Shown in pieces: positions 14-44,659 of a stretch of DNA of 64,000 nucleotides. The notes beneath the pieces were generated by a model. The model was not told the origin of the DNA and did no database searches. It worked only from the letters and a program-made list of their open reading frames with translations. The translations under genes were made by a program, and so were the position numbers. The stretch is from Trypanosoma brucei (taxonomy: Eukaryota), in the NCBI GenBank assembly GCA_000002445.1, contig CH464491.1, positions 1,536,001-1,600,000 of the forward strand, read 5' to 3'. Numbering within the stretch: position 1 is the stretch's first letter; each line of letters begins with the position of its first letter.

Positions 14-2074
14 GTGTTGGGGAGTGAATTTAACAATAACATTGAAACAGCACGATGTATGTGCGATAATTGCGTCCCCGAGGATGACCTCCAACGCATG
101 CAGTTGGAGGTAATGCACAAATATGGTGATCCATGTGACTGGGGTGTGGAAACAGTTATAGACGCTCTGCTAGATGTGGAACCGGGTGTGAAGCGCGAAA
201 CCATAGATGCATTGCGACAGATGAATGTTCATGGACGTACGCTACTCAATATGAACACAAAATCTCTGGAAGAGAAGGTTTTGCTTCAACGCTTCATCAG
301 GTTGGTGGACAAACTATTTCGTTCAGCATCCAGCTCCCCTCCCCAGCATGTTAGGGACGACGAGATGAGTGAATTATGGTTGCTCCACCAACACGGTGAT
401 GCTTTAGAAAAGTCAAATATATTCGCTTCTTGCAAATTTGTATCTTGTCCGGACGCTACGCAACGGGTGCTGCAACCCTTCTTTCGTGATTTGTTGGCAC
501 CGGATATTATTGCGGCGACACTGAGAACTTTAATATCGAAGATGGCCGATCCTGACTCCGGCGTCCCGCGCAGTGATCGAATTCGCTACCGTGAGGGAAG
601 TGGCTGCCAATACGTTCCTCCTGTTGTAGTAGCACAGCAATGCTTTAGTTCTAATGAACTGCATGAATGGTTGCTCACCGAATCACCGCGCTTGGGCCTC
701 ACATTACATGAGCATGTCGAGTCGCACGAAAGGGCACAAGCGTGTTGGCAATTTGTCCTCTGGTTAGTGCATGCAAAAATTGTCGTTCCAATATCTATTG
801 AACTAATCTCCGGTGTTTTAGTGCCCCCTGTTGTTACAAGGGCTGATGTGACATCATCTACAAGGCTGTTTACATTGAGTACAATACAGGAACTCCACGT
901 GCTCAACGAAAGTGAGCGTCACCCGTGTGGTGACGTGGATGTGCTGAGGGTTAAAATAAACCCAATCAAATCAACCCCTTTGCTTCTCACCGGAGCTTCT
1001 GCTCTCGCATGTGCCGAAACTCTGGTTGCTGTGGCGTTGGATACATTGCTTTACATGCAGGATATGTCTTCACCTACTGTACCCCCAGATGTGTCCCACA
1101 ACCCCACTGCTTGGAAGTTGTTGGAGACGGTATCCACTTCCAGTGCTCACCTTGCAGCAGTTAACATCAGAGGGCTTGAGCGCCGGGAGCTGTTCTGCTT
1201 TTGGGCGAACGTTTTCAATGCCTTGTACATTCATGCATGGATGTCAACACTAGGCAAACGGGCACAGGATTTTACATGCTTCTACAATACAAATGGTTAT
1301 AACGTTGGCGGTTGCTTCTTTTCGTTGAGTGACATCAAAGATGGCATATTAAGGGGAAACAAACCCGCCTACTACGCTGTTCTACCTCCGTTCAGCAAGT
1401 CTGACCCGCGATTGTTTATGGTTATCCCCCCAGATCCGAGTGACATTGAAGTGGAACTGCAAATGAAATCCAGAAATTGTTTTGATGATAAGCATATCAC
1501 CACCTCAAGTCGCCGTGATCTTCATACACGTATTTTGCTTGCTTTAATTGACGCCTACCTGGTGCCGGAGAATTTTGAAGACATGCCGTCGTACAACCCG
1601 CGAACGCTCCTCTTTGCAAGTTCCCCCACTGTTGCGTCACGCAGTGCAGAGGGAAGTAACAGCAGTTTCCTGGAGGATGACTTGGAAATTGACGAATCTT
1701 ATCGATCGCGTACTACTGTGGGGTTGTGGCACGCGAATAGTATTCCTGTCGTTGCTGCGACCTGGTTGTCGTCATGGTTCAACCAGCGCCACACGAATAA
1801 AAGCTCCACTCTTGCCAATCCATGTGTTCCACTTACTCCAGAACACCTATTGCAGCAAATACATGCCGCGGAGAGTTTTGTGTTGCGTTCACTCAGTCGC
1901 GCTCCACAGCCCACTGTTCCACTTCATGGCGTGCATGTCCCTCGAGCTTTGCTGCCGCTGTTTGTCAATATGGACAACGCTAGTATTGATGAGTTCATGC
2001 AATTACTGTCCGTTTCGCCACGGTCAGAAACATCACTTCGATGTGATATGTGGATTTCTAACCCACCTGCGTAA
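14..2074 (+). CDS. DUF547 domain protein (conserved hypothetical). No in-frame stop lies between position 2 and 14, so the 5' end may extend beyond the window; the first in-window ATG is at 59.
   Basis: Long + strand ORF. Motif LFCFWANVFNALYIHAWM...YNVGGCFFSLSDIKDGILRGN matches the DUF547 core (FW-N-YN-L, VGG, ILRgN). Frame is open to the window start. Confidence 0.6.
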   Translation: MLGSEFNNNIETARCMCDNCVPEDDLQRMQLEVMHKYGDPCDWGVETVIDALLDVEPGVKRETIDALRQMNVHGRTLLNMNTKSLEEKVLLQRFIRLVDKLFRSASSSPPQHVRDDEMSELWLLHQHGDALEKSNIFASCKFVSCPDATQRVLQPFFRDLLAPDIIAATLRTLISKMADPDSGVPRSDRIRYREGSGCQYVPPVVVAQQCFSSNELHEWLLTESPRLGLTLHEHVESHERAQACWQFVLWLVHAKIVVPISIELISGVLVPPVVTRADVTSSTRLFTLSTIQELHVLNESERHPCGDVDVLRVKINPIKSTPLLLTGASALACAETLVAVALDTLLYMQDMSSPTVPPDVSHNPTAWKLLETVSTSSAHLAAVNIRGLERRELFCFWANVFNALYIHAWMSTLGKRAQDFTCFYNTNGYNVGGCFFSLSDIKDGILRGNKPAYYAVLPPFSKSDPRLFMVIPPDPSDIEVELQMKSRNCFDDKHITTSSRRDLHTRILLALIDAYLVPENFEDMPSYNPRTLLFASSPTVASRSAEGSNSSFLEDDLEIDESYRSRTTVGLWHANSIPVVAATWLSSWFNQRHTNKSSTLANPCVPLTPEHLLQQIHAAESFVLRSLSRAPQPTVPLHGVHVPRALLPLFVNMDNASIDEFMQLLSVSPRSETSLRCDMWISNPPA

Positions 2075-11451: not shown

Positions 11452-11486
11452 ATTCCTCTCCCTCCTTCTTACTCTAATTTTTCATG
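11452..11486 (+). promoter_or_regulatory. Polypyrimidine tract upstream of the family A polymerase gene (candidate splice acceptor).
   Basis: Reading cattcctctccctccttcttactctaatttttcatg lies within 90 nt upstream of ATG 11537. Its presence supports 11537, not the upstream GTG, as the start. Confidence 0.45.
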
Positions 11487-11536
11487 TGCTTCTTTTTCTG
11501 CTCCGCGTATATGAATTACTGTACGTAACTACCGCT

Positions 11537-14227
11537 ATGAGTAGAGGGTGGTACGAGAATATACTCGCTTGTTGTTGTAATAAGGTGTTTCTTGCCAGTT
11601 GCGTGGCTACATCTTTCTTTCCCTTTTTATTCCTTTGGCAGGAGTGTCCATCGCCATACGTTGTGCTACTTTCGGTTCGCACGGACATGAAAAATCTTTC
11701 AATCTTCTCCGCAAGAAGGGATGACAGTCTCTCTGCTTTCTTTTGGACTGATTCTCTGATAAAATCCTGTGGGAATATCGGGAGCAGCGGGATTCATGCG
11801 TCGGTCACCTCCAAACAGAAAAAGAGTCCTGCAGCGAGTACGGATAGGAAGCGTCGCCGCTCAACTGAATTTTCCACTGAAACACTCCTGATCGCAGAAA
11901 CACCGGTGACAACTGCTTCGAAAAACACTGTTCTTACGCCCTCGGCTTCAAGAGCCCTCTCACCACCCGTTGCCAGTGGCCCTTCATGCGCTGAAATTTC
12001 GGTACGCGGTTTCGACGATGCTCTCAGCGTTAGTGAGGATTTGTTTGAGGGAAGGTTGGGGCCAGCCGTTGTTGACGTGGAGCTGGGTGAAAACACGTCT
12101 CTGATGAATGATGCGTCGGCGTTCTCTGCAGCACTGGCGGAAATAGACAGGGGAAGTGCAAGCGACGTGCAAAAACTGAACTCTTCCATTAAAGTTATGC
12201 TTCTTGTTGGTGGTGAAGCGTATTACGTATTTACGCCTCGTGACACGTTTTCTATTACCTTCTTAGCGAAACTGCTCGCTTCGGAGAATGTGACAAAGGT
12301 TTTGTTGAATGGACGACCTTTGTATCAATTACTATTTCGTTTTCTGGGTACAGATCGCATTGACGTGAGGAACCTTGTGGATCTTTCAGTTTGGGTACAA
12401 GTAATTGAACGTGTACGTGGACCTATTCATGCCGGAATCAAATGTGCTAACCCGAAAGAGGCTATGATGAAACTCCCAGAAAGTGTGAGAGCGCAAATCC
12501 AAACTCGGGTGAACAACTCGATGGTGGTACTGAGACATGGAGGTAGTTTGCCGGCAGATGGTCCGTTAAGACAGGGTGGTGGAGGTCAGAACATGCTTGA
12601 AATGCCCCCGCTGCCGTCAATAGGCTCTATTTCGGACTCGCAAATGGAGGATCGTCTTTGCTCTTCTATGGCCCTTCACGAGTATTATGAGAGCTTCGTT
12701 AAATCAGTTGATGACGACAACCCGAAGGTCTCATCTGTTTGTTCACTTCCTGCCGTTTGCCGCCTTGAAACTAGTGTAGCATTTTTGTGCGAAGTCATGA
12801 CATATCACGGTATGTTTGTGAGGAAGACTGCCTTTGAATTGATGACAAAGGATTTGGAGGATCAGATTGAAAAAATTAGTGACTATGGGAAGACCTTACT
12901 TGACGCAAGCCCATGTTCCAAGTATTCCGGAGGGTGTTTTAGCGTGAGGGAGGCAACGGCAGAAGTGATGGTTGATTGCTTGCGAGATACATACGGCTAC
13001 AATCTTTCCGTTAACGGCAGCTTTGACAAGCAACTCCAAAAACTTTATCGTGGCGCCGGCAAAGGAAATGAGTCGGGAAGAAAGTTGGCCCATGTATGGT
13101 TGGCTATTCGTGAGCGCACTGATTTTATGCGAACTCTCAGAAGCAACGTGGAAAATATGAATATGTTAGACCGCATCGTTGACGTTGCGACACAAGTTGC
13201 TTCGAACGAAGAGGATGAGGGTGCGAATGACTGCTCAGGCAGCGGTGGGAGTAGTGTGGGGAGTACAAAAAAAGCAGTCTGTTACTCTGTACATCCTCAC
13301 TGGGCCGTTCATCACACTTCGACGGGACGATTGTACTGTTCTCGACCCAATCTGCAAACTGTTCCCAAAACGGCACAAAAATGCACCTACGTAAGTCCCC
13401 TCACATCTGATTATGGGTTGTTGTTCACAAACCCTGAGTGGACAATGCGACACTTGTACGGTCCAGCACCTGGGTGCGTACTTCTTTCGTTCGATTTCAA
13501 CCAAATGGAGTTGCGCGTGTTGGCACATCTGAGCGGGGACGAGTTGCTCATTAAGCACTTGTCAAGTGAATACGACGTGCTATCAGCGATGACACGGCAC
13601 ATTACTGGTCTTAGTGATGATGAGCAGGTTCCGCCACACCTCAGAGAAACAGTCAAAGTTGTTGTCTACGGCTTATTTTACGGTATGGGCTTAGCGACAA
13701 TGAAGGAACGCGTGAAAATTTTGATGGACTCAGCACACTCAGTTCCGTCTAGTCAACGAAAATTTACCGCCGACACCTTACTACGTGCGTTTCATCAGCG
13801 TTACCCGGCTGCAGGAAAGTTTTTAACACGCGCACGCATCCGTGCGTTTCATGAGGCGCGTTGCGTTACCCTCACGGGTATCAACGACTTGTCGAGTGAG
13901 AAGGACGGCAATCGGCGAAGGCAGCACTCAATCGCTCGTATACTTCAGGGTAGTTCTTCCACGTTGTTTCAAAGTGCCATGGTGAAGGTTCACGAAAGGC
14001 GTCACGACATTGTTCCTAACCTACCTGCGGCCCCCTTCGCCCTTGTCTTGTGCATTCACGATGAACTCATATATTCTGTGGTTGAGGGGTACGTGGATGT
14101 TGTAGCAAGGAAAATAAAGGGGATAATGGTGGAGCAGGCGCAAGTATTTTCGTTGCGGGTCCCCTTACGAGTTTCAGTGAAGGTTGGAAAAACGTTCGGT
14201 TCACTCGAGAAACTTGATGTTCCTTAA
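11537..14227 (+). CDS. Family A (Pol I-like) DNA polymerase with a polymerase domain and no recognisable 3'-5' exonuclease motifs; Pol theta/nu-like or a kinetoplastid POLI-type. The track ORF starts at GTG 11486; the first ATG is at 11537.
   Basis: Motif A is SFDFNQMELRVLAHLSGDELL, motif B (O-helix) is RETVKVVVYGLFYGMG, and motif C is LVLCIHDELIYSV. The C-terminus aligns collinearly with Klenow, Taq and Pol theta palm and fingers. The N-terminal ~430 aa lack Exo I/II/III motifs. Confidence 0.8.
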   Translation: MSRGWYENILACCCNKVFLASCVATSFFPFLFLWQECPSPYVVLLSVRTDMKNLSIFSARRDDSLSAFFWTDSLIKSCGNIGSSGIHASVTSKQKKSPAASTDRKRRRSTEFSTETLLIAETPVTTASKNTVLTPSASRALSPPVASGPSCAEISVRGFDDALSVSEDLFEGRLGPAVVDVELGENTSLMNDASAFSAALAEIDRGSASDVQKLNSSIKVMLLVGGEAYYVFTPRDTFSITFLAKLLASENVTKVLLNGRPLYQLLFRFLGTDRIDVRNLVDLSVWVQVIERVRGPIHAGIKCANPKEAMMKLPESVRAQIQTRVNNSMVVLRHGGSLPADGPLRQGGGGQNMLEMPPLPSIGSISDSQMEDRLCSSMALHEYYESFVKSVDDDNPKVSSVCSLPAVCRLETSVAFLCEVMTYHGMFVRKTAFELMTKDLEDQIEKISDYGKTLLDASPCSKYSGGCFSVREATAEVMVDCLRDTYGYNLSVNGSFDKQLQKLYRGAGKGNESGRKLAHVWLAIRERTDFMRTLRSNVENMNMLDRIVDVATQVASNEEDEGANDCSGSGGSSVGSTKKAVCYSVHPHWAVHHTSTGRLYCSRPNLQTVPKTAQKCTYVSPLTSDYGLLFTNPEWTMRHLYGPAPGCVLLSFDFNQMELRVLAHLSGDELLIKHLSSEYDVLSAMTRHITGLSDDEQVPPHLRETVKVVVYGLFYGMGLATMKERVKILMDSAHSVPSSQRKFTADTLLRAFHQRYPAAGKFLTRARIRAFHEARCVTLTGINDLSSEKDGNRRRQHSIARILQGSSSTLFQSAMVKVHERRHDIVPNLPAAPFALVLCIHDELIYSVVEGYVDVVARKIKGIMVEQAQVFSLRVPLRVSVKVGKTFGSLEKLDVP

Positions 14228-17298: not shown

Positions 17299-18089
17299 GC
17301 AAGTTTCAAGATTAGATCAGCATGTGACGACGACCCGTAGTTCACGCACCGCTCCTTTTCTGCTCCCCTCCTCACCGTAAGTGAGCGTGTATGGGTTGGG
17401 CGAGAAAAAAAAGACAATTAAAAGGTATGCGTCCTCTCCCGTTGAAAGGAAGGGTAGGGGCTACCTAAAGTTTCTACAGCTTAGCACCACAGCAGCGAGG
17501 AGTTTACTTCAACAACAACTCTAACTACTTTTTGCAACATTATGAGTGTCCGCTATATGGATATTATAAAAAGGAAAGTTGTGGAATGGCGAGTTGTGGC
17601 ATATCGGACGATACGTTTATGTCCAAGCTTTCACTGAGCTGCGGTGGACTTCATGTTTTTGGGTCATATCCATTTGTGTTATCCACCTCTAACTGGTCAA
17701 TGGGGATATGGGTTGTGTGGCTCCTTCCAACTTTTACTTTCTTACTTCGTACAATTTGTATAGGCGTTTGCCTTCCCTAACGTTATTATAACATCTCCTC
17801 CTTATCTTTTTTTTGTACTCTTGCCTTCGCTGCACCGTGGTGGTGGGGGTATTGTTCTTCCGCCTACTCGATATGGTGAATTTACGCGATGCACGTGTAT
17901 GCGAACCATTTCTTAATTAGAACGTGAACACACACCGAAAAGAGAGCGTAGCACTCATACACTTTTCCTGTTAGGTGGGTAGGAGGTATCAAGTGGGCGA
18001 GAAGCGTCCCTTGCGATCGTTTTGTGTGTGGTTGTGGAACTCGTGTTTAATTTTGCACAGGAAACGTACTTTAGTGGTTAGTGGAGCAG

Positions 18090-20402
18090 ATGGAATCGGA
18101 TGCGGGTGTGGTGCAAGTAACCAACTTCCGGGGCGGCTTCACCGGAGAGGATGATTTGAACAACGGTGAACGTCAGCAGGATGAGGCAATCGACTTAAAG
18201 CTCATTTTCAAAGAATTTGTTGAACGGTTTCGTGTCCATAACGACCATTTATACATGGCTATGCTTCGAGGTAACCTTGCAGCAGGGCTTTTTTTTATGG
18301 AAGTGGAAATGTCACATATACAACAATTTAGCAGTGCTGTATTTAACGCAATTCTTTCAACGCCTACACGTGCACTACCATTATTTGAGCATGCTGTTTG
18401 GGAGCTAGCGCAGGAACACAAGCTACTACCACCGCTAAGTCGTCGCAGTAGTATACAGCTTCAACTGTATTGGGGGGTACCACCCACTCCGCTACGCCTA
18501 CTTGCTCAAGCCTCTGTTGCTCGTTTGGTATGTGTAAGCGGCATTGTTGTTAAGGTAAGTGCCTGTCATGCCCGATGTGTACGTGCCGCTATCCAGTGCA
18601 CGAGTTGTAGCAGTAAAACATACATCAATGGTGGGAGAAGCGTCGACTTACCTCCGCATTGCTTAGAGAATGGTGGTCGTGGGACGGCGACCGGCGGCGC
18701 AGGGTTTGGAGGCGGAGTTGGACAGCGTAAATGTAGACCAAACCCGTACACACTGCTCCCTATGGAGTGTGAATACGAGGACCAGCAGATCATAAAAGTG
18801 CAAGAACTTCCGGAAGATGTCCCAACTGGTGAGTTGCCACGTCACGTAACGGTTGTTGTGGACCGGTACTTGGTTGACCGTGTGAGTCCAGGGTCTCGGG
18901 TGCAGATTGCTGGCATTGTCTCCGTGCAGGAGAAGCGCGGGGGTGTGGAAGGAGGTGGTAGAAAGGGAAGTAAAGGGACACGTGCCGCTGCGGGACTTCG
19001 TGCTCAATACCTTCGGTGCGTCGGTCTCATGTTCATCACTGCGAAGGACGGTGGAGCTTCCGTTCAAAGCGTCAATCAGAACTTTTCCTCTCGGGTCCGC
19101 TCTCAGTCGCGAATGGCGTGGCAGGTGGAGGAAGAAGCAGCATTTCAACGCTTCGCAGAGCAGGGTGATGTGTACGAGCGACTTGCACAAAGCATAGATC
19201 CCGCTATCTTTGGTTTGCAAGACCAGAAGAAGGCGATTGTTTGCCTTTTGTTTGGTGGTACGAGGAAACGACAGGGTAGTAATTATTTACGTGGTGATAT
19301 GAATGTGCTCTTTATCGGGGATCCTTCCACAGCGAAGTCGCAACTACTCAAGTTCACAGAAAAAGTAGCCCCGATTGGTATATATACATCCGGTAAGGGA
19401 AGTAGTGCAGCTGGTCTAACAGCATCTGTCATATCTAGTGGAAATGGTGACTTTGTGCTCGAAGCAGGTTCGATGGTGCTTGCGGATGGGGGTGTCGTTT
19501 GCATTGATGAGTTTGACAAAATGAGGGAGCAGGACCAAGTGGCGATCCATGAGGCTATGGAACAGCAGACTATATCCATTGCTAAGGCTAACCTCACGAC
19601 GATGCTTAACAGCAGGACGAGCGTATTAGCAGCTGCCAATCCAACGTTGGGTAGTTACGATCCGCTTCGATCAAATGAAGACCAAATGGACTTTCAGAGT
19701 TCCATCCTTTCTCGCTTTGACCTCATTTTCAAGGTAATTGACCCACGTAACCCCGAAGTTGATAATAAACTCGCGCAGCACGTGATCAATCTACATAAAG
19801 GGGGTAGTGCTCGTCATTCACATAGTACGACAACAGCAGTTGTTGAACGTTCTTTCTTCACAAAATATATCTCATACGCCAGAGCTACTCGTCATCCCCG
19901 TATTTCAGAGGACGCCATGTCTGTGCTGCTAGACTTTTACGTTCATGTTCGTCGTGAGGCACATCAGCAAACCCTCGATGCATTGTCCAACTCCGGTGGG
20001 ACGAAGGCTCAGACTCCTATCATTCAAGTAACTGCGCGCCAGCTGGAGAGTCTTGTGCGAATAACGGAGTCCATGGCTCGCATGCGTCTCGATGTACTCG
20101 CCCACCGCGCAGATGCGGAAGAAGCTATACGACTCTTTAAGTCAGCGACGGTGGATGCAATCAAGAGTGGTGTGAGTGATCAAAGTATGACCGCTGCTCA
20201 AAGTGAATTAGTTCTCCGTATTGAGGATGCGTTGCGAAGGCGGGTAGCACTCGGCGCAACGGTGGAACATAGCCGACTAATGTCGGAGATGGCTCGCGTC
20301 GGTTTCGATGTGAAGCTTGTGGAGCGTGCCATCTATGCAATGATGAAGCGCGAAGAATTGGAGTGGCGGAGGCAGCGCACCCAAATTCATCGGTTACGTT
20401 AA
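18090..20402 (+). CDS. MCM5: DNA replication licensing factor MCM5. Track start is GTG 18081; the ATG is at 18090.
   Basis: Walker A is LFIGDPSTAKSQLLKF, Walker B is VVCIDEFDKMREQD, the arginine finger is SRFDLIF, and the N-terminal zinc motif is CHARC..CTSCSS. There is MCM5-specific collinearity with human and yeast MCM5 (RLFKEFVERF, KCRPNPYTLLPMECEYEDQQIIKVQELPEDVPTGELPRH, C-terminal EEALRLFKSATVDAIKSG). Confidence 0.9.
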   Translation: MESDAGVVQVTNFRGGFTGEDDLNNGERQQDEAIDLKLIFKEFVERFRVHNDHLYMAMLRGNLAAGLFFMEVEMSHIQQFSSAVFNAILSTPTRALPLFEHAVWELAQEHKLLPPLSRRSSIQLQLYWGVPPTPLRLLAQASVARLVCVSGIVVKVSACHARCVRAAIQCTSCSSKTYINGGRSVDLPPHCLENGGRGTATGGAGFGGGVGQRKCRPNPYTLLPMECEYEDQQIIKVQELPEDVPTGELPRHVTVVVDRYLVDRVSPGSRVQIAGIVSVQEKRGGVEGGGRKGSKGTRAAAGLRAQYLRCVGLMFITAKDGGASVQSVNQNFSSRVRSQSRMAWQVEEEAAFQRFAEQGDVYERLAQSIDPAIFGLQDQKKAIVCLLFGGTRKRQGSNYLRGDMNVLFIGDPSTAKSQLLKFTEKVAPIGIYTSGKGSSAAGLTASVISSGNGDFVLEAGSMVLADGGVVCIDEFDKMREQDQVAIHEAMEQQTISIAKANLTTMLNSRTSVLAAANPTLGSYDPLRSNEDQMDFQSSILSRFDLIFKVIDPRNPEVDNKLAQHVINLHKGGSARHSHSTTTAVVERSFFTKYISYARATRHPRISEDAMSVLLDFYVHVRREAHQQTLDALSNSGGTKAQTPIIQVTARQLESLVRITESMARMRLDVLAHRADAEEAIRLFKSATVDAIKSGVSDQSMTAAQSELVLRIEDALRRRVALGATVEHSRLMSEMARVGFDVKLVERAIYAMMKREELEWRRQRTQIHRLR

Positions 20403-32973: not shown

Positions 32974-35847
32974 ATGCAGCGCTCACCTCAATCATATGAG
33001 AGCTTTCTTGACGACGAGGAACTTGTTAAGCAGCTGATTGAGGCTACCGACGTGGATGAAGTTGTAGAGCGCATGGAAATAGAGCGTTACCATCACATTG
33101 CGCCCTTGCTACGGGAAATGGGACCGTATAATTGTGACTCAAAGAAACAACCAGGCTCTACGTTATCGAACTCTCAGCAACAGCAGTGGAATAGAGACGA
33201 ACCTTTTCACAATAATCCAGATGCGCGAACGAATGAAATGAAAAGAACACGCGATAGAGGTTTGCGTTACACCATGAATACCGCTTCCACCCCACCCCCG
33301 CCCCCACCAGAAACACTCTCCCCCATAGAGGATCCCCTTGAAAGGCCACGTGAGGAGATGAAGCCAACTAGAAGACGTTACACATCACCCGCACCCACGA
33401 AATCGCCATTACTCTCCAGCGAGAGAAAAAGGCAACCACCAACGTATGATGATCAGGACGAAAAACCTATCACCCATAGAATTCGTCGAAGACAAGCATA
33501 TAGTGCGGAAAGGCTGAGACCACCAAAGAGCAACACAAGTCGAGGGAGGCCACTCTCGCCGGCTAACCCCAGAGGCTACGCTGGACAGCAGAGGGCTCGC
33601 TCTTATGATCGGAAACCACCACCCCCATCGTCACGGCGGATTTCCCCACAGGATGAGTGTCCGAACGGGTTGGGGAAGTCACCTTCTAGTTATTCCTACT
33701 TTCGCCCGGCAGCCACCGCAAAGCCAGCATGGAGGGGTGTAAAGAATGCCCAACGTTACATGGATCTGTTTGCACCTCCTGCTGCTAACCCATCCGAAAA
33801 TCGTAGTCCATTGCGTCGGATTAAAGGTGGGTACATTGCGCCCCTTCCACCTCCTGACGGTCAATCAAGAAGAACACTATCGGCGAGGAAGCGTCCTCTT
33901 TCTCCGCCCGTTCCAGGCCGACGCCTAACACCACCAGTGGATCGTTACTTTCCTTTGAGCAGTGGTATTAGCCGGTGGGGCCGTATGGACAACGGCTATG
34001 ATTCAGAACTAACTGACGCATCAGAGGATGTACATCCCTCAGATGATGCACTTCAAGGCTACGCTGGTTACGATAATTATGTTGTTATTCCCCCACGTGT
34101 CGTAGAGAGGGAGCGGTGCGTGAGAAACCGTGTGCCAACTATGTCTCCGGCACGCTCCAGTATTCTTGTGAGCCCATGTAGATGTTTTTCTTCCCCCTGT
34201 GAGAGGAGTGGATCCTCCGATGCACAGAGGATGTGGAGATCACCACAAAGGACCCAACGAGGAACAAGATCACCCCAGGTAAGATTATCACCAGCCGTGG
34301 ATGATTCAAGAGAAAGTGAAAAGAACAAGAGCACGCGAGTGAAGAACGAAGACCTTAGTCGGAAAAATACTTGCGACGCAGGAATATCATTTCCTTCGCC
34401 GCGACAAAGGTTTAAGCCGCCCGACATGGTAACAAAGAAGGGAAATCACCGCGAAACCCAAACCTCTCCGCCACAACCCAGCCACAAGGAGGTCAAGAAT
34501 GCCGCCCTTTCACCACGCACGCTTCCAGACGAGAAGACGCCCCGCCCGGACGGCACGACAGAGCAACCGAGTACCAAATCTCCATCCCTCCCCGCTTCCA
34601 CGCGGGGGTCAAACATATCAGTTTCCTCGTCAGAAGGTGGGGGGAAGGATGAAGTTCCCATTGTGGATATTAGCAAAGAGAACAAGTCGTGTGACAACAG
34701 TCATTCACCTGACAGCGTTACTCATACATACAAAAATGTAGGAAATAAGATCTTGGATCGTAAAACTGCTGTAAGTCCGCGAGTCCACGATAAAGATAAG
34801 CGTGAGAGAAAGGGCAAGCGACAAAAGCGTATAAAACGGCGAAAAAACAATGCCCCTGACTCATCCACTGACCAGAGCAGTACGTCAGACTCAAGTTCAT
34901 CAAGTAACTTTTCCAGCGGTACACCATTTGATGAGTCACGGACAACGGAAAGAAAGCGTCGTCATCGCCGTACTCATCAGAAGTCGGGTGGCGATTCGCA
35001 CCGTCAGCAAAAGGGGAAATCAGCTCTAAGTTCCGACAACTCTCCTCTAAGAGATGATACGGCACACGCACAGGTGCCGAAAGTGTACCCCCCACTTACC
35101 AGCAGTCCTCAGAGAATTAGGAAACCTATTTGCCTACAACAGGATCCAGTTGTGCGACCGCAAGTGCAGTCAGCAAGCCGACCGCCTTTTGCGCAGACGG
35201 TACAGAGGCCTGTGTGCACTCCCGAACCGTTTATCTCATTTTCATCTCCTCCAAAGAGCAAGACGGATGTAAATGGCATTCAGCGCAGTGACAACGCAGG
35301 TCAAGGCGTTCCTTCTGTTAGCATACGAGTTGTGCCACCACCATCTCCAGGCCCACGTCGCGAACCGCCGAGCCCCACTGCCCCGAAAATGGGAGGAGTG
35401 AAGATTCCTTACATGTCGTATCTCCACACTTCGTCACCAACATCTGTAAGAGCTTCACAGTTGGGACCGGCGCAGCCGCAGCAGACCCAGTCAGCAGCAT
35501 CTGCAGCGACCCCCAGAAACGGAACTGGTGAACCCGTGTGGCGGAGCAGTGGTCATGATAGCGTTGGACGGAGTAATACGAGGGAACCTCATTTAAGGAG
35601 GAAGTGGGCTATTTGTGGGCATACACAGATACGTTCCCCACCGAGGGGTGGACGTTGTTCGTCGCAGCCTCCCCATCTACAGGCGCATGAATGGACGGCT
35701 AACGGACAACGAATGACAACAACTCGTCAAATTACTGAGCCGCCCCTCCCGATCACACCACGGCGGTCGGGCGCCACCACTCCTCAAAGACCAAACGGAT
35801 CATGCGTAAAGATAATCTCCAGCCCCTCGAGGGTAGCGCAGCACTGA
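32974..35847 (+). CDS. Large low-complexity protein rich in Pro/Ser/Arg/Thr, probably intrinsically disordered.
   Basis: 957-aa ORF. ATG at 32974 is preceded by a pyrimidine-rich tract. Composition is dominated by P, S, R, T and Q with a short structured N-terminus (MQRSPQSYESFLDDEELVKQLIEATDVDEVVERMEIERY). No stop codons over 2.9 kb, which supports coding. Confidence 0.55.
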   Translation: MQRSPQSYESFLDDEELVKQLIEATDVDEVVERMEIERYHHIAPLLREMGPYNCDSKKQPGSTLSNSQQQQWNRDEPFHNNPDARTNEMKRTRDRGLRYTMNTASTPPPPPPETLSPIEDPLERPREEMKPTRRRYTSPAPTKSPLLSSERKRQPPTYDDQDEKPITHRIRRRQAYSAERLRPPKSNTSRGRPLSPANPRGYAGQQRARSYDRKPPPPSSRRISPQDECPNGLGKSPSSYSYFRPAATAKPAWRGVKNAQRYMDLFAPPAANPSENRSPLRRIKGGYIAPLPPPDGQSRRTLSARKRPLSPPVPGRRLTPPVDRYFPLSSGISRWGRMDNGYDSELTDASEDVHPSDDALQGYAGYDNYVVIPPRVVERERCVRNRVPTMSPARSSILVSPCRCFSSPCERSGSSDAQRMWRSPQRTQRGTRSPQVRLSPAVDDSRESEKNKSTRVKNEDLSRKNTCDAGISFPSPRQRFKPPDMVTKKGNHRETQTSPPQPSHKEVKNAALSPRTLPDEKTPRPDGTTEQPSTKSPSLPASTRGSNISVSSSEGGGKDEVPIVDISKENKSCDNSHSPDSVTHTYKNVGNKILDRKTAVSPRVHDKDKRERKGKRQKRIKRRKNNAPDSSTDQSSTSDSSSSSNFSSGTPFDESRTTERKRRHRRTHQKSGGDSHRQQKGKSALSSDNSPLRDDTAHAQVPKVYPPLTSSPQRIRKPICLQQDPVVRPQVQSASRPPFAQTVQRPVCTPEPFISFSSPPKSKTDVNGIQRSDNAGQGVPSVSIRVVPPPSPGPRREPPSPTAPKMGGVKIPYMSYLHTSSPTSVRASQLGPAQPQQTQSAASAATPRNGTGEPVWRSSGHDSVGRSNTREPHLRRKWAICGHTQIRSPPRGGRCSSQPPHLQAHEWTANGQRMTTTRQITEPPLPITPRRSGATTPQRPNGSCVKIISSPSRVAQH

Positions 35848-36757
35848 TGGTTGTAGACGAGCGAGTGTGCGCGTGGAGGCAAGGCTTTACACTAAGGGGT
35901 GCTTGCGGTTTTACTATATGGAACTTTCATGCACATTTGCAATATTTTAAGAAAGGCTGCCAAACAGTTTGGTGGTTCTCTTAGTGTTTTGAGATATATA
36001 TTTTACCCCTTAGGTGTGTTAAAACTACTACATAGAGCAACAGTGTGCGAGGTGACGAAACATAAAGTTCTTTTACTTGTTTTTTTTAATTACGAATGCT
36101 TCTTTTTTTTTTTTTTGAGGGGAAGTGTGAACTACTGCGATGCTGTTCTTTATTAGATGCTGAGCGAAACGAAAGGGTACTGGATATAAGCGAAAAGAAA
36201 ATAATGGGCAGTAGAATAGGGAAAGAGATTGTTGGAAGGGAGCGGGAGACAAGTGGAATGGGGTTTGGTAGAGGGAGTGGTAGATGCATCTGCTTCAGTT
36301 AGAAGCGTTTATGTTGTTTTCCTATATTTTTTATGACCGTTTAAAGCATGCGGACATATATATATATATATAAACCCTTTTCTGTCTTTTCTTTTCCGTT
36401 GTTATTAAGCGTGGGAGCACACAAGGAAACGTGGAACAACACTAAATTTAACCAATTTACGCGTTCTGGGCTGCATTACCTTACCGTCACCTTCACTTCT
36501 TTTCTATTTGTCTATGACGCATTTCTCTTGTTTGTGTGTCTTTCTTTTTCCTTCTACTTGGTCTGCTTTCATGGGGGTTGCCGTAAACCTACTGGAACCC
36601 CCTGACAACGGAAATGTTGTATTGAGGTGCTGGATCGTGCAGTGAAGGGGGGTTGGCTATTGGGTGCTAGAGTTCCCCGCACATAAGTACAATATAATTT
36701 TGTGTGCGCGCAGTTACGCACTTTTTTCGTTTGTACAGCTAAGAGAGACCGTTGACG

Positions 36758-38521
36758 ATGATGACCAGCAGTCCGAGTTCCATTGAAGTGCCCCACTCGT
36801 GGGCGGAGAAGTACAAACCAAAAACCATTGCACAGATGTGTTACCCCGTTACCGCAAATAAGTTGAAGCAATGGATGGAAGAATTTGAAGCCAATAGTTC
36901 CAAAATGAGGGGAGCACTACTCTCGGGACCACCTGGTGTTGGTAAGACGACATCTGTTTATGTTGTGGCTTCCGAGCTCGGGCGTGTTGTTGTTGAATAC
37001 AACGCCAGCGACTTCCGCAGCAGAAAATCACTGCGGGAGAACGTTAGCACCGTAGTTAATAACCGCACTTTCAGCAACACTTCCTCGTCCTACGCTAATA
37101 TTGTGCTGCTGATGGACGAAGTGGATGGGTGCGACATTGGCGGCGTCGGAGAAGTTATTCAAATGATCAAGAATACCAACGTGCCAATCATCTGCACGTG
37201 CAACGACCGGTGGCATCCAAAATTGCGCTCACTGCTGAACCACGTGGAAGACATCCGCGCTGGTCGACCCCCGTGTAACATAGTTGCCAACTACCTTTGT
37301 GATAAGGTACTGGCTCGCGAAGGCATCTCTCTTTCTAAACAGCTTCTGCAGGACATCATACAACGATCGGGAAGCGACATCCGCAGCATGCTCAACAATC
37401 TGCAAATGTGGTGCATCAACCAAACATCACTTCAGCAGAAGAAACTTGCGGAGTGCGCACTGCAGTCAGCAAAAGATGGTGATGTTGGCCTATTTGAAGC
37501 CGCCGAGGTATTTCTTCTGCAGGGGTCGTCGCGTGGTAGGCCCCGTTCCATTGAAGAGCTCCAGTCCACGTTCTACAACTCGGACCTTGTGGACATGTTC
37601 GTGCAGGAAAACTACCTTCACTTCAAACCTGAGGACCGTGATTGGATGGATGCAGTTGCCGAGGCAGCGTCTTCAATTTCACTCTCGGATCTAGCGCAAC
37701 GTATTATGTTCTTTGAGAACAACTGGTCCGTATCCCGGTCCCACGTACTTCTCTCCAGTATTATACCGTGTGCCCTAACTCGTGGTCATTACGAAACTTT
37801 TGTAACAGGGCAGCAGGCCATATTTGATCGACAACGTCCTGTGAAGTTTCCTTCATGGCTTGGTCAAAATTCAGCTGCTGGTAAAAACAAAAGGCTGCTT
37901 CGGTGCTTGACATTTCAGGCGATGGGTCACTCGAAGGGTATTAGCGGTACACAAGAGGATGTTCTGCTTGATTACATACCACGTGCCTGGGAGAGCAGAC
38001 TTACCGACCCATTAGCACAACGGGGGAAGGATGCCATTCCGGAAGTAATTGCTTTCATGGATCAGTACCACATCATGCGTGATGACTGGGAATTTATCCA
38101 GTCTGTTGCACACTTTAAGAAAATGCAGTCGGCGTCTCCAAACCCTGCTGCAGGAGATATTCCAGGAGGTATAAAAGCAGCCTTCACGCGAGAGTTCAAC
38201 AAGACACATCGTTTGGAAAGCTTTGCGAAGGGGGCGCTGCAACGGGTTGCCACCGATGGAATAGGGTTTGGAGAGGGGGAAGAAGACAACGAGGAAGAAG
38301 GAAGTGTTGCGGGAGCCTCACGCCCCACTGCGAAGAAAGCTTCCGCGAAAACTGCCGCGAAGCCGAAGAAGGCGGCGAAAAAGGAAGGTAACGAGAATGC
38401 AAAACCGAAGAAAGCGGCGGCCAAGACGGCGAAACCTGCGGGTAGGCGGGGGAGGAAAGCCACTCTTGTCGACTCTGATTCGGAACCGGAGTTTGAGAGC
38501 TACAGTTCCGATGACTATTAG
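36758..38521 (+). CDS. Replication factor C large subunit-like AAA+ clamp loader (RFC1/Ctf18 family) lacking an N-terminal BRCT domain, with a basic histone-H1-like (KKA/AKK repeat) C-terminal tail.
   Basis: WAEKYKPKTIAQM (RFC box II-like) and the P-loop LLSGPPGVGKTT. ELNASDFRSRKSL, VLLMDEVDGCDIGG and PIICTCNDRWHPKLRSL align with RFC1 (ELNASDTRSK, LIMDEVDGM, PIICMCNDRNHPKIRSL). The C-terminus is AKKASAKTAAKPKKAAKKEGNENAKPKKAAAKTAKPAGRRGRKA. Confidence 0.75.
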   Translation: MMTSSPSSIEVPHSWAEKYKPKTIAQMCYPVTANKLKQWMEEFEANSSKMRGALLSGPPGVGKTTSVYVVASELGRVVVEYNASDFRSRKSLRENVSTVVNNRTFSNTSSSYANIVLLMDEVDGCDIGGVGEVIQMIKNTNVPIICTCNDRWHPKLRSLLNHVEDIRAGRPPCNIVANYLCDKVLAREGISLSKQLLQDIIQRSGSDIRSMLNNLQMWCINQTSLQQKKLAECALQSAKDGDVGLFEAAEVFLLQGSSRGRPRSIEELQSTFYNSDLVDMFVQENYLHFKPEDRDWMDAVAEAASSISLSDLAQRIMFFENNWSVSRSHVLLSSIIPCALTRGHYETFVTGQQAIFDRQRPVKFPSWLGQNSAAGKNKRLLRCLTFQAMGHSKGISGTQEDVLLDYIPRAWESRLTDPLAQRGKDAIPEVIAFMDQYHIMRDDWEFIQSVAHFKKMQSASPNPAAGDIPGGIKAAFTREFNKTHRLESFAKGALQRVATDGIGFGEGEEDNEEEGSVAGASRPTAKKASAKTAAKPKKAAKKEGNENAKPKKAAAKTAKPAGRRGRKATLVDSDSEPEFESYSSDDY

Positions 38522-40551: not shown

Positions 40552-40822
40552 ATATCGCTTTATTTTGTTGTTGCGGCGTAATCTAATTGCCCTTTGTGTA
40601 CACAACTGGAAGAAAATGGAACAGTGTATCGCCAAACTTACTCTTTCCTCATTATTTTATTTACATCTATTTCTGCCCAAGTGTGCGGGTACTTCATTTT
40701 CCATCAGAGGGTTGATGCCCCACCAACTGATTTTCCCCTTTATGATTCTGCTTTGATAACTGTACAAGGAGGAGGACGAAATTCAGACACGAAACAAGTG
40801 GTCTCAGCTTCATCGGTTGCTA

Positions 40823-41938
40823 ATGAACAAATCCGCAAAAAAGAAGGGTCTCTCCATGGAAGAAAAGGTGTCGCGTATTGAAACTTGGTTTGTTAACAAT
40901 CCGTCGCCTTACACGTTGAAAGATTTAATTCAAATTCTACCCAAGGCGACGGGCGTGATCCCACAGTCCGTGGAAGAGTGCATGGAAATCCTTGTCTCGG
41001 AAAATCGTGTGCGGCAGAAGAAAGTGGGTGTTCATGTTCTTTTTTGGCGTTTTCCCCAAACTGCTACCCAACGGTTGGCCGGCTCTATGGGAGAGAAAAC
41101 AACAACCACAGAATTAGCCAAATACCTTAGTATGTCAGAAGATGAGCTTCGGACGGAACTTCAAACTTTGAAGAAGACAGAGAAAGATATTCGTCAGCGG
41201 ATAAAAGAGACTCAGGCATCCATTGGGGATGACAACGCTGTTCAAAAGGATGCAGAGCAAATACGAAGTCTTCAGGGTGAAGTCAAGATACTGGAAGAGC
41301 AACTCAATCAACTTGCCCTGTTGGATCCAGCATTCGTTGAAAAACTGAAGGCCGCAACAGTGGTAGCGTGGGAATCTGCCAACCGCTGGACAGACAACAT
41401 GTACTTACTTGAGCAGCATATCTCACGGAAGATGGGGATGAGTGCACGGGAGCTGCGTGCTCAGCTGCAGCTTCCTCTAGAGGTGGAATACATTGAGTAT
41501 GATGAGCTTCTGCCGTCAGCAACGAGTGGGGGTAAATCAGCATGTACATCTTCAGGAAATTCTTGTGCGTCACCTCTAATCTGCACCGTCGATGCCACTC
41601 ACGGGGGAGGCAACAGTCAAGAAGTACCGGCAGCATTCCACATTGAGGAAGGCCACACCCAAAATATCAATGAGGAAGCGGGGGAAGCATTAACTGAAGG
41701 TGGATGTGATGTGAAACCTCATGAAGACGTTGAGAATGAAACCTCTAACACCTTAAGGAAGGAGAGGGATGGAAAGAAGCGTGGCAGGGGGAGACCTCCA
41801 CTGGAGAATGCTAAGAAAGATGACAATATGGTTAATGCTCCCTCAGTTAAAAAGAAAAAGAATGAAAAGGACAGACCACCTGCTGCGAGTAATACTGATG
41901 CACTCACGCCGGCCAGACAACGGCGTTGCCGAAGGTAA
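40823..41938 (+). CDS. MND1: Meiotic nuclear division protein 1 (MND1) homologue with a ~170-aa C-terminal extension that contains an RGRP (AT-hook-like) basic motif. Track start is TTG 40817.
   Basis: The N-terminus MNKSAKKKGLSMEEKVSRIETWF...YTLKDLIQILPKATGVIPQSVEECMEILVSENRVRQKKVGVHVLFWRFP matches the Mnd1 winged-helix consensus (KKKGLS-EEK...F-...LKELEK-PK--GI---SVKEVLQ-LVDD--V---KIG----YWSFPS). Coiled coils follow, then ANRWTDNMYLLEQHISRKMGM (Mnd1: ANRWTDNIF-----------). The C-terminal extension includes KKRGRGRPPLENAKKD...KKKKNEKDRPP. Confidence 0.85.
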   Translation: MNKSAKKKGLSMEEKVSRIETWFVNNPSPYTLKDLIQILPKATGVIPQSVEECMEILVSENRVRQKKVGVHVLFWRFPQTATQRLAGSMGEKTTTTELAKYLSMSEDELRTELQTLKKTEKDIRQRIKETQASIGDDNAVQKDAEQIRSLQGEVKILEEQLNQLALLDPAFVEKLKAATVVAWESANRWTDNMYLLEQHISRKMGMSARELRAQLQLPLEVEYIEYDELLPSATSGGKSACTSSGNSCASPLICTVDATHGGGNSQEVPAAFHIEEGHTQNINEEAGEALTEGGCDVKPHEDVENETSNTLRKERDGKKRGRGRPPLENAKKDDNMVNAPSVKKKKNEKDRPPAASNTDALTPARQRRCRR

Positions 41939-43770: not shown

Positions 43771-44659
43771 GAGTGCATGAACGAACACATTCATACATTT
43801 ACATTAAGTTTGCATAGATGTGACTAACACACTGGTGGTGAGAAAGGGAACACAACTGAGTGCTCACATCAGGTAACAAATCTGCCGCTGCGACTCAGTG
43901 CGGTATTTTGGAAGCAGTGTGAAGACGAGACGGTAAAAAGGTGCTGAACTTCAAGTCAGTAAGTCGGCAGCTATCGGTGTGTGTATGTGCTACTCGAAAT
44001 CACTCCACGGGGTTCGTTTTTCTTTTTTTCAGATTCGGTGTTTTAGATGTACGCCTCCAAATGTGTTAAGGAGACAAAGAAATTAAAGAAAAGAGAAGGT
44101 AATGGTGAGAAGGAGGATGTAAGAGAGCCCAGAGAAAATAAAAGAATCTCTCACATATCCTCTGTTTTCTCCTCTTCTTTGTATGTGTTTTGTGTGTTTT
44201 GGTTCCTTCTGCCTTGTATGTGAGTGAAAAAATAACGTGTGGTGATGAATGGTGCAAGGGAAGGAGGAGTTGTGACCTGCTAAGGAACTGTAACTGAATT
44301 ACTTTTACCTATGTGGTGACGTGCGTAAGTAGTAGAAGCAAAGAAAGAGGAAAAGTTGGCATGTTACTGCAGTGGAGGTTTATCTCCTGTTTATGTAAAT
44401 TTGACTCCTACCACTAGGGATATCACTTCCTGACATAGTGGCAAGCTATGAAATGTTATCATTAGATGAATGAATACTTACCACTACTGTTATCATCCCC
44501 TTCACGCTGAATGGATCGTGAGGGAGTGAGATATTCAACACCTTGTGCTCAAAAGAATGCAAAATTTTTTTTTATCAGTTCAATTTAAGAACTTTTTTCC
44601 ACCACGTTTGTTTCCCCTATTGACTGTAGCTGTTTTTCAAGAAAGTGAGTGCGCACCAA

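Follow-up and report, generated by a model that had tools for sequence, protein, structure and literature searches.

Domain organization of the Trypanosoma brucei family A DNA polymerase POLIE and its similarity to Pol theta and Pol nu

POLIE was described for Trypanosoma brucei by Leal et al. 2020 (PMC7515707) and Rabbani et al. 2022 (PMC8887473). The protein is nuclear, is located at the nuclear periphery, and its depletion by RNAi leads to growth arrest, DNA damage, and the derepression of VSGs (PMC7515707, among others). POLIE is essential in T. brucei and has been proposed as a drug target. Tagged POLIE co-purifies with TRF, TIF2, and telomere repeats, and upon depletion of the protein the 3' overhangs become longer, the G-strand is over-extended in a telomerase-dependent manner, and C-circles increase. 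The related helicase is encoded by a separate, unlinked gene, Tb927.8.3550 (Leal et al. 2020, PMC7515707).

LiPol-theta of Leishmania infantum (LinJ.24.0910; Fernandez-Orgiler et al. 2016, PMC4889957) belongs to the same orthologue family and resembles POLIE in having no helicase, in keeping the conserved motifs, and in lacking Exo motifs. In experiments, LiPol-theta is an active nuclear translesion polymerase that bypasses lesions and is devoid of exonuclease activity; the protein is mainly nuclear, with a minor kinetoplast signal (PMC4889957). The metazoan POLQ polymerase domain (4x0p, 8e23, 8ef9) shares with POLIE the succession of an inactive exonuclease-like domain and a family A polymerase. 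PolN-like proteins have so far been described only in metazoans (Leal et al. 2020, PMC7515707). The kinetoplastid mitochondrial POLIA is likewise a kinetoplastid-specific family A polymerase without an active exonuclease, and has been reported to be derived from Pol theta. Published trees disagree on the placement of the POLIE clade (PMC7515707 versus PMC4889957).

The analysed stretch of DNA (the window) is 64 kb long and contains an array of genes, all of which are on the + strand and one of which is the POLIE open reading frame (Table 1). The encoded protein exactly matches XP_828630.1 / EAN79518.1, located on the 5.26-Mb TREU927 contig, and XP_828630.1 is listed as TbPolIE / Tb927.11.5550 (TbbA) in Table 1 of Leal et al. 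2020 (PMC7515707). We assign the gene with high confidence to T. brucei POLIE, a nuclear family A polymerase that works in repair and at telomeres and is deficient in proofreading. Although genuine, the finding is already published, and there is no sequence difference from the described TbPolIE (PMC7515707, PMC8887473). The proposal of the initial annotation, a stand-alone Pol theta-type polymerase with a role in translesion synthesis or repair and a helicase encoded elsewhere, is essentially the published annotation (XP_828630.1, Tb927.8.3550, lesion bypass by the L. infantum enzyme). To this, the present analysis adds the N-terminal exonuclease-fold domain, the probable start at M51, and a motif-level comparison.

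Table 1. Positions of POLIE features within the window
Feature	Position	Strand	Description
ORF as annotated in TREU927	11537..14227	+	896 aa plus stop; stop codon 14225-14227; uninterrupted from ATG 11537
Product of the ORF	11537..14227		XP_828630.1 / Q385L3, 'DNA polymerase theta, putative' = TbPOLIE, Tb927.11.5550
Likely true coding sequence	11687..14227	+	846 aa; probably begins at residue M51 of the annotated protein
Short conserved N-terminal motif SLSAFFWTDSLIKS	11723..11770	+	family consensus E-x-x-L-L-F-W (orthologue alignment)
Basic cluster KQKKSPAASTDRKRRR	11813..11860	+	candidate nuclear localisation signal
Degenerate 3'-5' exonuclease-fold ('pseudo-exo') domain	11999..12721	+	aa ~155-395
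Exo I-like D180-V-E182	12074-12082	+	on strand beta-1 of the pseudo-exo domain
Exo II-like segment KVLLNGRPLYQLLF	12296-12337	+	Asn kept, Asp lost
Family A polymerase domain (thumb, palm, fingers)	12746..14224	+	aa ~404-896
Disordered low-complexity loop in the polymerase domain	13160-13267	+	aa 542-577
Segment between PNLQ and motif A	13349..13492	+	48-49 aa vs 31 in bacterial Pol I; modest insertion at the Pol theta insert-2 site
Motif A DFNQMELR	13493..13516	+	aa 653-660, catalytic D653; D, N, Q, E, L, R invariant in 14 orthologues
Motif B RETVKVVVYGLFYGMG	13643..13690	+	aa 703-718; R703, K707, Y711, Y715
Motif C HDE	14057..14065	+	H841-D842-E843

Bacterial Pol I sequences are detectable homologues of POLIE, which reflects family membership only, and the origin of the ORF from a contaminating bacterial Pol I gene, considered in the initial annotation as a refutation, is excluded. 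The same array contains the eukaryotic genes for triosephosphate isomerase, axonemal dynein light chain, MCM5, RFC1, and Mnd1, the protein is identical to one from T. brucei chromosome 11 and has no 5'-nuclease domain, and orthologues are present across kinetoplastids, as found by an exhaustive search of representative sequences. The orthologue set was taken from that search because a word-index search performed poorly: with the full-length query, nothing but the T. brucei cluster and a handful of Pol I sequences from bacteria was retrieved, a query of residues 201–590 matched nothing, itself included, and an orthologue profile again retrieved no kinetoplastid orthologues. A pseudogene was rejected, since the ORF is intact and its catalytic residues are conserved.

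The annotated TREU927 start codon, which the initial annotation adopted, is probably located 50 codons too far upstream, and M51 is the likelier start. The T. b. gambiense gene model and four assembled copies have a length of 846 residues. Polypyrimidine tracts are located at positions 11453–11470, 11489–11499, and 11612–11628; behind the upstream tracts no AG occurs before 11540, which is downstream of the annotated ATG. Furthermore, T. cruzi marinkellei and T. vivax have the conserved N-terminal motif 13–17 residues from the start, a distance that T. brucei matches only if translation begins at M51. These observations favour M51 by inference from the sequence. The motif is predicted to form a helix with low pLDDT (residues 13–28 in the 846-residue numbering), and lies in a stretch of about 100 N-terminal residues that is disordered apart from it. 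The basic cluster that may function as a nuclear localisation signal has similar counterparts in orthologues.

The gene had initially been described as encoding the polymerase domain only, but the N-terminal half of POLIE is not free of domains. It contains a degenerate exonuclease fold, which a disordered loop of residues 337–361 interrupts. The exonuclease catalytic set is lost. In the orthologue alignment, the carboxylates of Exo II and Exo III are gone, and the Exo I-like D180-x-E182 pair is kept in Trypanosoma species; its Glu is conserved only in Trypanosoma and in P0029, whereas the Leishmania-type proteins have Gln, Arg, or Val at this site. Even with a threshold of E ≤ 10, no Pfam exonuclease family matches T. 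brucei POLIE, and the domains PF02739, PF01367, and PF01612, looked for as marks of a bacterial Pol I nuclease, are absent from it. The initial statement that the protein has no Exo I, II, or III signatures is not confirmed in this form, given the Exo I-like pair of Trypanosoma. Unlike bacterial DNA polymerase I, POLIE has neither a 5'-3' nuclease nor an active 3'-5' exonuclease, and keeps only the Exo I-like D-x-E. As in Pol theta, an inactive exonuclease-like domain stands immediately before the polymerase domain, and the helicase-less layout of a pseudo-exonuclease and a polymerase is that of Pol nu; the Pol nu pseudo-exo family PF18049 has no match at E ≤ 10 in POLIE or any other orthologue. 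Two MAFFT alignments of the N-terminal region with bacterial Pol I were discarded because of implausible registers: one set the region against the 5'-nuclease domain, and the other paired Exo II with a stretch that the orthologues do not conserve. The first AlphaFold run, based on a shallow alignment of the query with seven Pol I sequences from bacteria and the T. b. gambiense copy, was also discarded, as its pLDDT was below 50 throughout the N-terminal half.

The polymerase domain was modelled with pLDDT values of mostly 80–97. The only Pfam match of the protein is PF00476 (DNA_pol_A; residues 584–888, E = 1e-49, 170 bits versus a cut-off of 34.3), which is matched by all 14 orthologues and, together with motifs A (D..Q.ELR), B (R...K...[FY]G..YG), and C (HDE), confirms the initial assignment to family A. 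The motifs and their catalytic aspartates are intact, as had been noted: D653, R703, K707, Y711, Y715, and H841-D842-E843 are the same in all 14 kinetoplastid orthologues, and this speaks for selection on catalysis. We expect the T. brucei enzyme to be catalytically active and to bypass lesions. The near-universal 'ER.A.N' just before QGSAAD is replaced in the PolIE clade by R-[KR]-Q-x-A-[VI]-A (RRQHSIA in T. brucei), and T. brucei has QGSSST in place of the QGSAAD of most family members.

The motif A context LAHLSGDELL had been considered to resemble Pol theta and Pol nu more closely than bacterial Pol I. This view is unsupported, because the pattern ELR.LAH.S..D..L is the consensus of the Pol theta group as well as of the bacterial Pol I group and, being common to the whole family, is not diagnostic. 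In motif B, Y711 stands at the site where bacterial Pol I and POLIA have Phe, and Pol theta has Tyr. The consensus of the motif is K V.VYGL.YGMG in the PolIE clade, K..CYG..YGMG in Pol theta, K..NFGI.YGM in bacteria, and KRVVFG.LYGAG in POLIA. The Tyr and the YGMG ending (K..[IC]YG..YG[MI]G) are thus those of Pol theta instead of the bacterial NFG..YGM. The segment between PNLQ and motif A has a median length of 44 residues in the Pol theta group, and Leishmania-type orthologues have a far longer one; a profile alignment places the kinetoplastid insertion opposite insert 2 of wild-type human Pol theta (4x0q). The segment at the insert-3 site contains 37 residues in T. brucei, in comparison to 32 in bacteria and 39 in the Pol theta group. 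The search for Pol theta-specific insertion loops, suggested in the initial annotation, thus covered segment lengths at the insert-2 and insert-3 sites and the position of insert 2, which 4x0q confirms; the sequence inside the inserts cannot be aligned. Leishmania-type proteins are 1000–1350 residues long and have far larger insertions than T. brucei both at the insert-2 site and after motif B.

The best sequence matches of POLIE in the PDB were human Pol theta (1.5e-26), Pol nu (human POLN, 4xvi; 3.5e-20), and Taq (5e-18), and Klenow was also matched. The orthologue profile matched Pol theta with 1.5e-48 and Pol nu with 2e-38, and Klenow about equally to Pol theta. Since Pol nu scores below both Pol theta and Klenow, the searches do not indicate a specific affinity to Pol nu. 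The top 24 Foldseek matches of the POLIE model are all Pol theta or Pol nu. Genuine Pol theta proteins with the POLQ helical domain, which carry PF21099, PF00270, and PF00271, constitute 37 of the 132 best non-orthologous relatives. POLIE shares with metazoan POLQ motif B K...YG..YGMG, motif C HDEL.Y, the insert-2 insertion, and the best sequence and Foldseek matches. In contrast to POLQ, POLIE has no fused helicase or central domain, and no helicase or POLQ_helical domain was matched by Pfam in POLIE or 13 aligned orthologues; the T. brucei inserts are short, motif A is DFNQ and not DYSQ, ER.A.N is replaced, and no role in a telomere complex has been described for Pol theta. POLIA is among the top non-orthologous matches (91–98 bits), with scores comparable to those of Pol theta. 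POLIA and POLIE have both lost the Ser of DYSQ from motif A (D[FY]QQ and DFNQ, respectively), and have 'VV' before the aromatic residue of motif B; however, POLIA keeps the motif B Phe and AERQA.N before QGSAAD. The 'POLIA' label of the protein P0014 is an annotation transfer; this protein aligns end to end with POLIE with 585 bits.

The phylogeny suggested in the initial annotation was calculated by neighbour-joining from 296 columns and 155 sequences, with POLIA as the one representative of POLIA-D. In the full-data tree, the PolIE clade is nested among Pol theta sequences, and POLIA forms a separate clade, but bootstrap support is low. The PolIE clade grouped with Pol theta in 84 of 300 bootstraps when POLIA was excluded and in 138 of 300 when POLIA was free to join (28–46%), with POLIA in 71 of 300 (24%), and with bacterial Pol I in 15%. 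Sequence data at the present depth cannot decide whether the PolIE clade descends from Pol theta.

It is possible, although we hold this only tentatively, that Pol theta is naturally split in T. brucei and that POLIE, as its polymerase half, acts in trans with the Tb927.8.3550 helicase in microhomology-mediated end joining (MMEJ), including at VSG expression sites. The Pol theta-like motif B, the insertion at the insert-2 site, and the Foldseek matches fit this reading, and trypanosomatids have robust MMEJ, no NHEJ, and no other Pol theta candidate. However, no genetic or biochemical test of the dependence of MMEJ on POLIE is reported in the trypanosomatid literature, the L. infantum enzyme has no terminal transferase activity (PMC4889957), the T. 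cruzi helicase is linked to replication and not to repair (PMC7515707), and the bootstrap support for the Pol theta grouping is low. The split enzyme is compatible with the best explanation given below, to which it adds a role in a particular pathway. It is highly improbable that POLIE is a fifth mitochondrial POLI paralogue with a function in the replication or repair of kinetoplast DNA; a mitochondrial POLI paralogue involved in kDNA replication was the alternative offered in the initial annotation. Leal et al. 2020 place POLIE with POLIA and POLIC in their tree (PMC7515707), and the scores, the shared loss of the motif A Ser, the minority of bootstraps that pair POLIE with POLIA, and the minor kinetoplast signal in L. 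infantum point in the same direction. The role in kDNA replication is nevertheless contradicted by published data: the T. brucei protein is nuclear and bound to the TRF telomere complex, and its depletion phenotypes are nuclear and telomeric. Because POLIA itself is reported to be derived from Pol theta, grouping with the mitochondrial POLIA need not mean a mitochondrial role; the annotation transfer in the label of P0014 also counts against this reading.

We consider it unlikely that POLIE is mainly a non-catalytic, DNA-end-binding scaffold at telomeres, with its polymerase activity dispensable or lost in T. brucei. The suppression of telomerase is not an obvious polymerase activity, the replacement of ER.A.N and the QGSSST sequence affect otherwise conserved positions, and we found no biochemical assay of T. 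brucei POLIE itself in the literature, which also counts against the best explanation, as do the replacement of ER.A.N, the low bootstrap support, the Klenow score of the orthologue profile, and the published grouping with POLIA and POLIC. On the other hand, none of the residues in motifs A, B, and C that serve catalysis or dNTP binding varies among kinetoplastid orthologues, the Leishmania orthologue is active despite the same clade-specific substitutions (PMC4889957), and the rise in C-circles upon depletion fits a synthesis defect. Catalysis rather than scaffolding probably underlies the telomere role of POLIE.

In the best explanation, POLIE has the layout of the C-terminal half of Pol theta or of Pol nu, with a disordered tail, a catalytically incomplete pseudo-exo domain, and a complete thumb, palm, and fingers polymerase following one another from the N terminus. 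The identity of the gene, this domain anatomy, the integrity of the motifs, and the loss of the exonuclease catalytic set are results of the present analysis. Devoid of proofreading, POLIE would be a low-fidelity repair polymerase. Published experiments show that it is a stable member of the TRF/TIF2 telomere complex, where it restrains telomerase-dependent G-strand extension, has been proposed to support C-strand fill-in, and suppresses VSG switching as well as recombination in subtelomeres. The pseudo-exo domain may be more than a dead relic, as strand beta-1 still has the Asp-x-Glu pair of Exo I in Trypanosoma. We regard as speculative and rather improbable that this domain binds or trims single-stranded 3' ends in Trypanosoma and, together with the E-x-x-L-L-F-W helix as a putative TRF/TIF2 docking site, caps the telomeric 3' overhang and blocks telomerase, so that a split Pol theta-like enzyme would replace missing OB-fold end-binding proteins.

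The results refine the description of POLIE in small respects. The N-terminal half contains a Pol theta/nu-style pseudo-exonuclease domain and is not unstructured, and the TREU927 start codon is probably misplaced, which bears on tagging, predictions of N-terminal targeting, and recombinant expression. As already published, POLIE is an essential parasite-specific polymerase that ties together DNA damage tolerance, telomere end processing, and antigenic variation.

The gene at 11537–14227 on the forward strand comprises 896 uninterrupted codons and ends in LDVP followed by a stop. An exact-sequence look-up identified its product as XP_828630.1 (EAN79518.1, UniProt Q385L3) of T. brucei brucei TREU927, which is named "DNA polymerase theta, putative" and is encoded on a 5.26-Mb contig. 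XP_828630.1 is the "TbbA" protein of Leal et al. 2020 (PMC7515707), renamed TbPolIE, gene Tb927.11.5550, and is called POLIE here. The 24 other open reading frames (ORFs) of at least 200 aa in the window are located on the forward strand, except for one that is antisense and nested in a larger ORF. These surroundings fit a trypanosomatid polycistronic unit. Bacterial Pol I contamination is excluded, because POLIE is a TREU927 protein within a forward-strand gene array of trypanosomatid type. The identifiable genes in the window encode an axonemal dynein light chain, triosephosphate isomerase, an emp24 protein, a RabGAP and a DnaJ protein, together with the replication and recombination proteins MCM5, an RFC1-like clamp-loader subunit, Mnd1 and a SNF2-family ATPase. 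Trypanosomatid polycistronic units generally show no functional logic in their gene order, and the proximity of the replication and recombination genes to POLIE is therefore probably a coincidence. Within the window, only the segment 32000–36000 combines a negative GC skew with a strongly positive AT skew (0.18 at 34–36 kb); it contains a 957-aa ORF with no Pfam match.

A single Pfam family, DNA_pol_A (PF00476), was detected in the 896-aa product, spanning residues 584–888 with an E-value of 1e-49. The closest solved structures by sequence are those of human Pol theta (1.5e-26), Pol nu (3.5e-20), Taq (~5e-18), and Klenow (6e-16). The residues of motifs A, B, and C are invariant in the alignment of POLIE with 13 kinetoplastid orthologues. 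The Pfam match, structural relatives, and invariant motifs bear out the initial annotation of a family A polymerase with intact motifs, and make this observation real, far beyond chance. Motif A starts with DFNQ in the POLIE clade, as opposed to DYSQ, and with D[FY]QQ in the kinetoplastid mitochondrial polymerase POLIA. Before QGSAAD, the POLIE clade has R-[KR]-Q-x-A-[VI]-A in place of A-E-R-x-A-x-N, which is near-universal in family A. T. brucei POLIE contains RRQHSIA, then QGSSSTLFQSAM at 13955–13990 (aa 807–818), and additionally QGSSST where most of family A has Q-G-S-A-A-D.

The N-terminal half had been described as lacking exonuclease motifs, leaving a polymerase domain only. A sequence-profile search of T. 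brucei POLIE found no exonuclease family at significance, and PF01612 was touched by one orthologue at E = 0.046; however, the alignment, AlphaFold model, and Foldseek comparison predict a degenerate exonuclease-fold domain. Three blocks upstream of the polymerase are strongly conserved among the orthologues: L-L-x-G-x-L-G-P-V-x-x-D-V, F-F-L-L...L-Y-T, and L-P-L-L-A-x-L-L-x-S-P-x-V-T-K-V-V-L-H-x-R-L-L-Y-R-L-L-F-L-F-L-G-T-D-R-V. A profile combining 28 exonuclease or exonuclease-like domains of bacterial enzymes and Pol theta aligns its Exo II region with the last block (hhalign P = 0.012), and matches several orthologues in one collinear register through the Exo I strand, beta-3, Exo II, and the thumb helix. 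Scores of at least 2.4 bits were reached by 7 of 19 orthologues, which are not independent of one another, and by 0.4% of locally shuffled controls, with the profile lying partly in the thumb helix. The AlphaFold model, calculated from a 14-sequence orthologue alignment, has a mean pLDDT of 75.2 and a pTM of 0.76. Its residues 105–285 (numbered from M51 in the 846-aa form; pLDDT 75–94) are arranged in the order strand-helix-strand-helix-helix-strand-strand-helix-strand-helix-strand-helix. Foldseek aligned the model to Pol theta and Pol nu constructs with exonuclease-like and polymerase domains over ~795 columns, with target TM-scores of 0.65–0.72. The conserved blocks, modelled fold, and Foldseek match therefore predict two domains in a Klenow-like layout, the exonuclease-fold one being degenerate. 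D180-V-E182 is positioned on strand beta-1 at the Exo I site; D-V-E is kept in Trypanosoma and one distant orthologue, and is D-V-Q, D-V-R, or D-V-V in Leishmania-type proteins. The Exo II segment K-V-L-L-N-G-R-P-L-Y-Q retains the Asn and has no carboxylate, and the orthologue alignment contains no conserved Y-x3-D Exo III motif. Because no more than two of the four catalytic carboxylates remain, proofreading by POLIE is very unlikely. The lost carboxylates agree with the exonuclease-negative Leishmania enzyme.

The TREU927 gene model starts at 11537, whereas the T. b. gambiense model and four independently assembled copies encode 846 aa, starting at M51 (11687). Codons 1–50 of the TREU927 model (11537–11686) are pyrimidine-rich and encode a Cys- and Phe-rich peptide. 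There is no AG dinucleotide between 11451 and 11540, and the first candidate splice acceptor is therefore downstream of the ATG at 11537. A conserved N-terminal motif is separated from the start by 13–17 residues in T. cruzi marinkellei and T. vivax; in T. brucei the distance is 13 residues from M51 as opposed to 63 from M1. Together, the shorter models, pyrimidine-rich codons, late AG, and motif spacing indicate that the true start is likely at 11687 and that codons 1–50 are probably 5' UTR or outron. The choice of start matters for the N-terminal targeting prediction that the initial annotation proposed. The motif itself, [ED]-x-x-[LV]-[LF]-[FY]-W followed by a helix, occurs in nearly all kinetoplastid POLIE orthologues and may be a docking motif.

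Coordinates of features in the window, in POLIE (896-aa numbering), and in a homologue alignment
Feature	Position	Strand	Remark
Polypyrimidine tracts	11453–11470, 11489–11499, 11612–11628		
N-terminal motif	11723–11770		aa 63–78; inside an otherwise disordered, variable tail
Motif A	D653-FNQMELR		sequence
Motif B	R703-ETVK707-VVVY711-GLFY715-GMG		sequence
Motif C	H841-D842-E843		sequence
MCM5	18081–20402	+	
957-aa ORF	32974–35847		within the skewed stretch
RFC1-like subunit	36752–38521	+	
Mnd1	40817–41938	+	
SNF2-family ATPase	44645–47866	+	
Insertion in P0167 (bacterial Pol I)	about 935–1275		columns of alignment A3

The motif-A context LAHLSGDELL, which had been considered closer to Pol theta/nu, does not discriminate, because ELR-x-LAH-x-S-x-D-x-x-L is the consensus of both Pol theta (33 sequences) and bacterial Pol I (27 sequences). 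Motif B and the Tyr after motif C are better discriminators. The POLIE clade has K-x-x-V-Y-G-x-x-Y-G-M-G in motif B, compared with K-x-x-C-Y-G-x-x-Y-G-M-G in Pol theta, and is unlike bacterial Pol I (K-x-x-N-F-G-I-x-Y-G-M) and POLIA (K-R-V-V-F-G-x-L-Y-G-A-G). The Tyr after motif C (HDEL-x-Y) is shared with Pol theta. Segment lengths point in the same Pol theta-like direction: that from PNLQ to motif A has 49 aa in POLIE, 31 in bacteria, and medians of 44 in Pol theta and 69 in kinetoplastid orthologues, and the kinetoplastid insertion is opposite insert 2 of wild-type human Pol theta (4x0q, profile alignment). The insert-3 site of POLIE is just ~5 aa longer than the bacterial one, and an insertion after motif B is kinetoplastid-specific.

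An exhaustive search of 1.84 billion representative proteins yielded 18 kinetoplastid orthologues at E < 1e-30, followed by a sharp fall in score to ~115 bits or less. Among the next 132 matches, 37 have the POLQ helical domain, 16 of them with the helicase too, about 27 are bacterial-type Pol I, and POLIA of Angomonas and Leishmania score 91–98 bits. The E-values of the orthologue profile are nearly the same for human Pol theta (1.5e-48) and for Klenow (1.3e-47). In a neighbour-joining tree of 296 columns, the POLIE clade is nested among Pol theta and POLIA is elsewhere. The clade, P0043 (a homologue described below) included, is monophyletic in 293 of 300 bootstraps; it groups with at least 20 Pol theta sequences, without POLIA and bacteria, in 84, and in 138 if POLIA is free to join. 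Grouping with POLIA alone (71/300) or with bacteria (45/300) is less frequent. Published placements differ: Fernandez-Orgiler et al. (PMC4889957) regarded the Leishmania protein as a true Pol theta orthologue, Leal et al. (PMC7515707) placed its T. brucei counterpart in a group with POLIA and POLIC, and Harada et al. found an affinity to Pol theta for POLIA itself; POLIB–D have been attributed a phage origin. A shared Pol theta-derived origin of POLIE and POLIA is a candidate scenario that would reconcile these placements.

P0043 (831 aa, Logan assembly) consistently falls either within the kinetoplastid POLIE clade or next to it as the nearest outgroup. Its motif B contains YAVLYGMT, and its ER.A.N segment reads YEREAVS, with Glu and Arg kept and Asn changed to Ser. 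P0043 may be a deep-branching euglenozoan relative, in which case it could help resolve the origin of POLIE. Another homologue, P0014 (EKF39441.1, T. cruzi marinkellei), is labelled "POLIA", probably through erroneous annotation transfer, which could mislead paralogue assignments. The bacterial Pol I P0167, from a JGI metagenome, has, within its polymerase domain and immediately ahead of the QGS motif, a ~300-aa insertion, which looks like an intein or homing-endonuclease insertion unrelated to POLIE.

POLIE is a real, biologically important gene, already annotated and experimentally characterised, to which we add a predicted pseudo-exonuclease fold, a probable mis-annotated start, and the non-diagnostic nature of the motif-A argument. 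Tb927.11.5550 co-purifies with TbTRF and telomere repeats in bloodstream and procyclic forms. Tagged TbPolIE localises to the nucleus, with enrichment at its periphery (Leal et al. 2020, PMC7515707). RNAi knockdown arrests growth and leads to DNA damage and faulty chromosome segregation; it also makes cells mildly sensitive to MMS and UV and derepresses silent VSGs. Rabbani et al. 2022 (PMC8887473) described POLIE as an intrinsic, essential telomere protein, depletion of which increases VSG gene conversion, T-circles, C-circles, and telomerase-dependent G-strand synthesis, and greatly elongates the 3' overhang. The purified L. infantum orthologue lacks 3'-5' exonuclease, dRP-lyase, and terminal transferase activities; in the cell it is found mainly in the nucleus, and it confers protection from oxidative and cross-linking damage (PMC4889957). 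The Pol theta/HelQ-like helicase is encoded by an unlinked gene in all kinetoplastids, Tb927.8.3550 in T. brucei (Leal et al., PMC7515707). In a 2025 review, Tb927.11.5550 is entered as the POLQ of T. brucei, and the joint action of the separate helicase and polymerase products in MMEJ is described as still to be elucidated. POLIE is most likely a family A polymerase of the nucleus that is deficient in proofreading and resembles Pol theta/nu in body plan, and it may perform in T. brucei the gap filling and lesion bypass shown for the Leishmania orthologue. The TRF/TIF2 complex would hold POLIE at telomeres, where it would limit telomerase-dependent G-strand extension and, as Rabbani et al. (PMC8887473) propose because C-circles rise on depletion, promote C-strand fill-in. 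Limited G-strand extension together with C-strand fill-in would keep overhangs short and suppress subtelomeric recombination and VSG switching.
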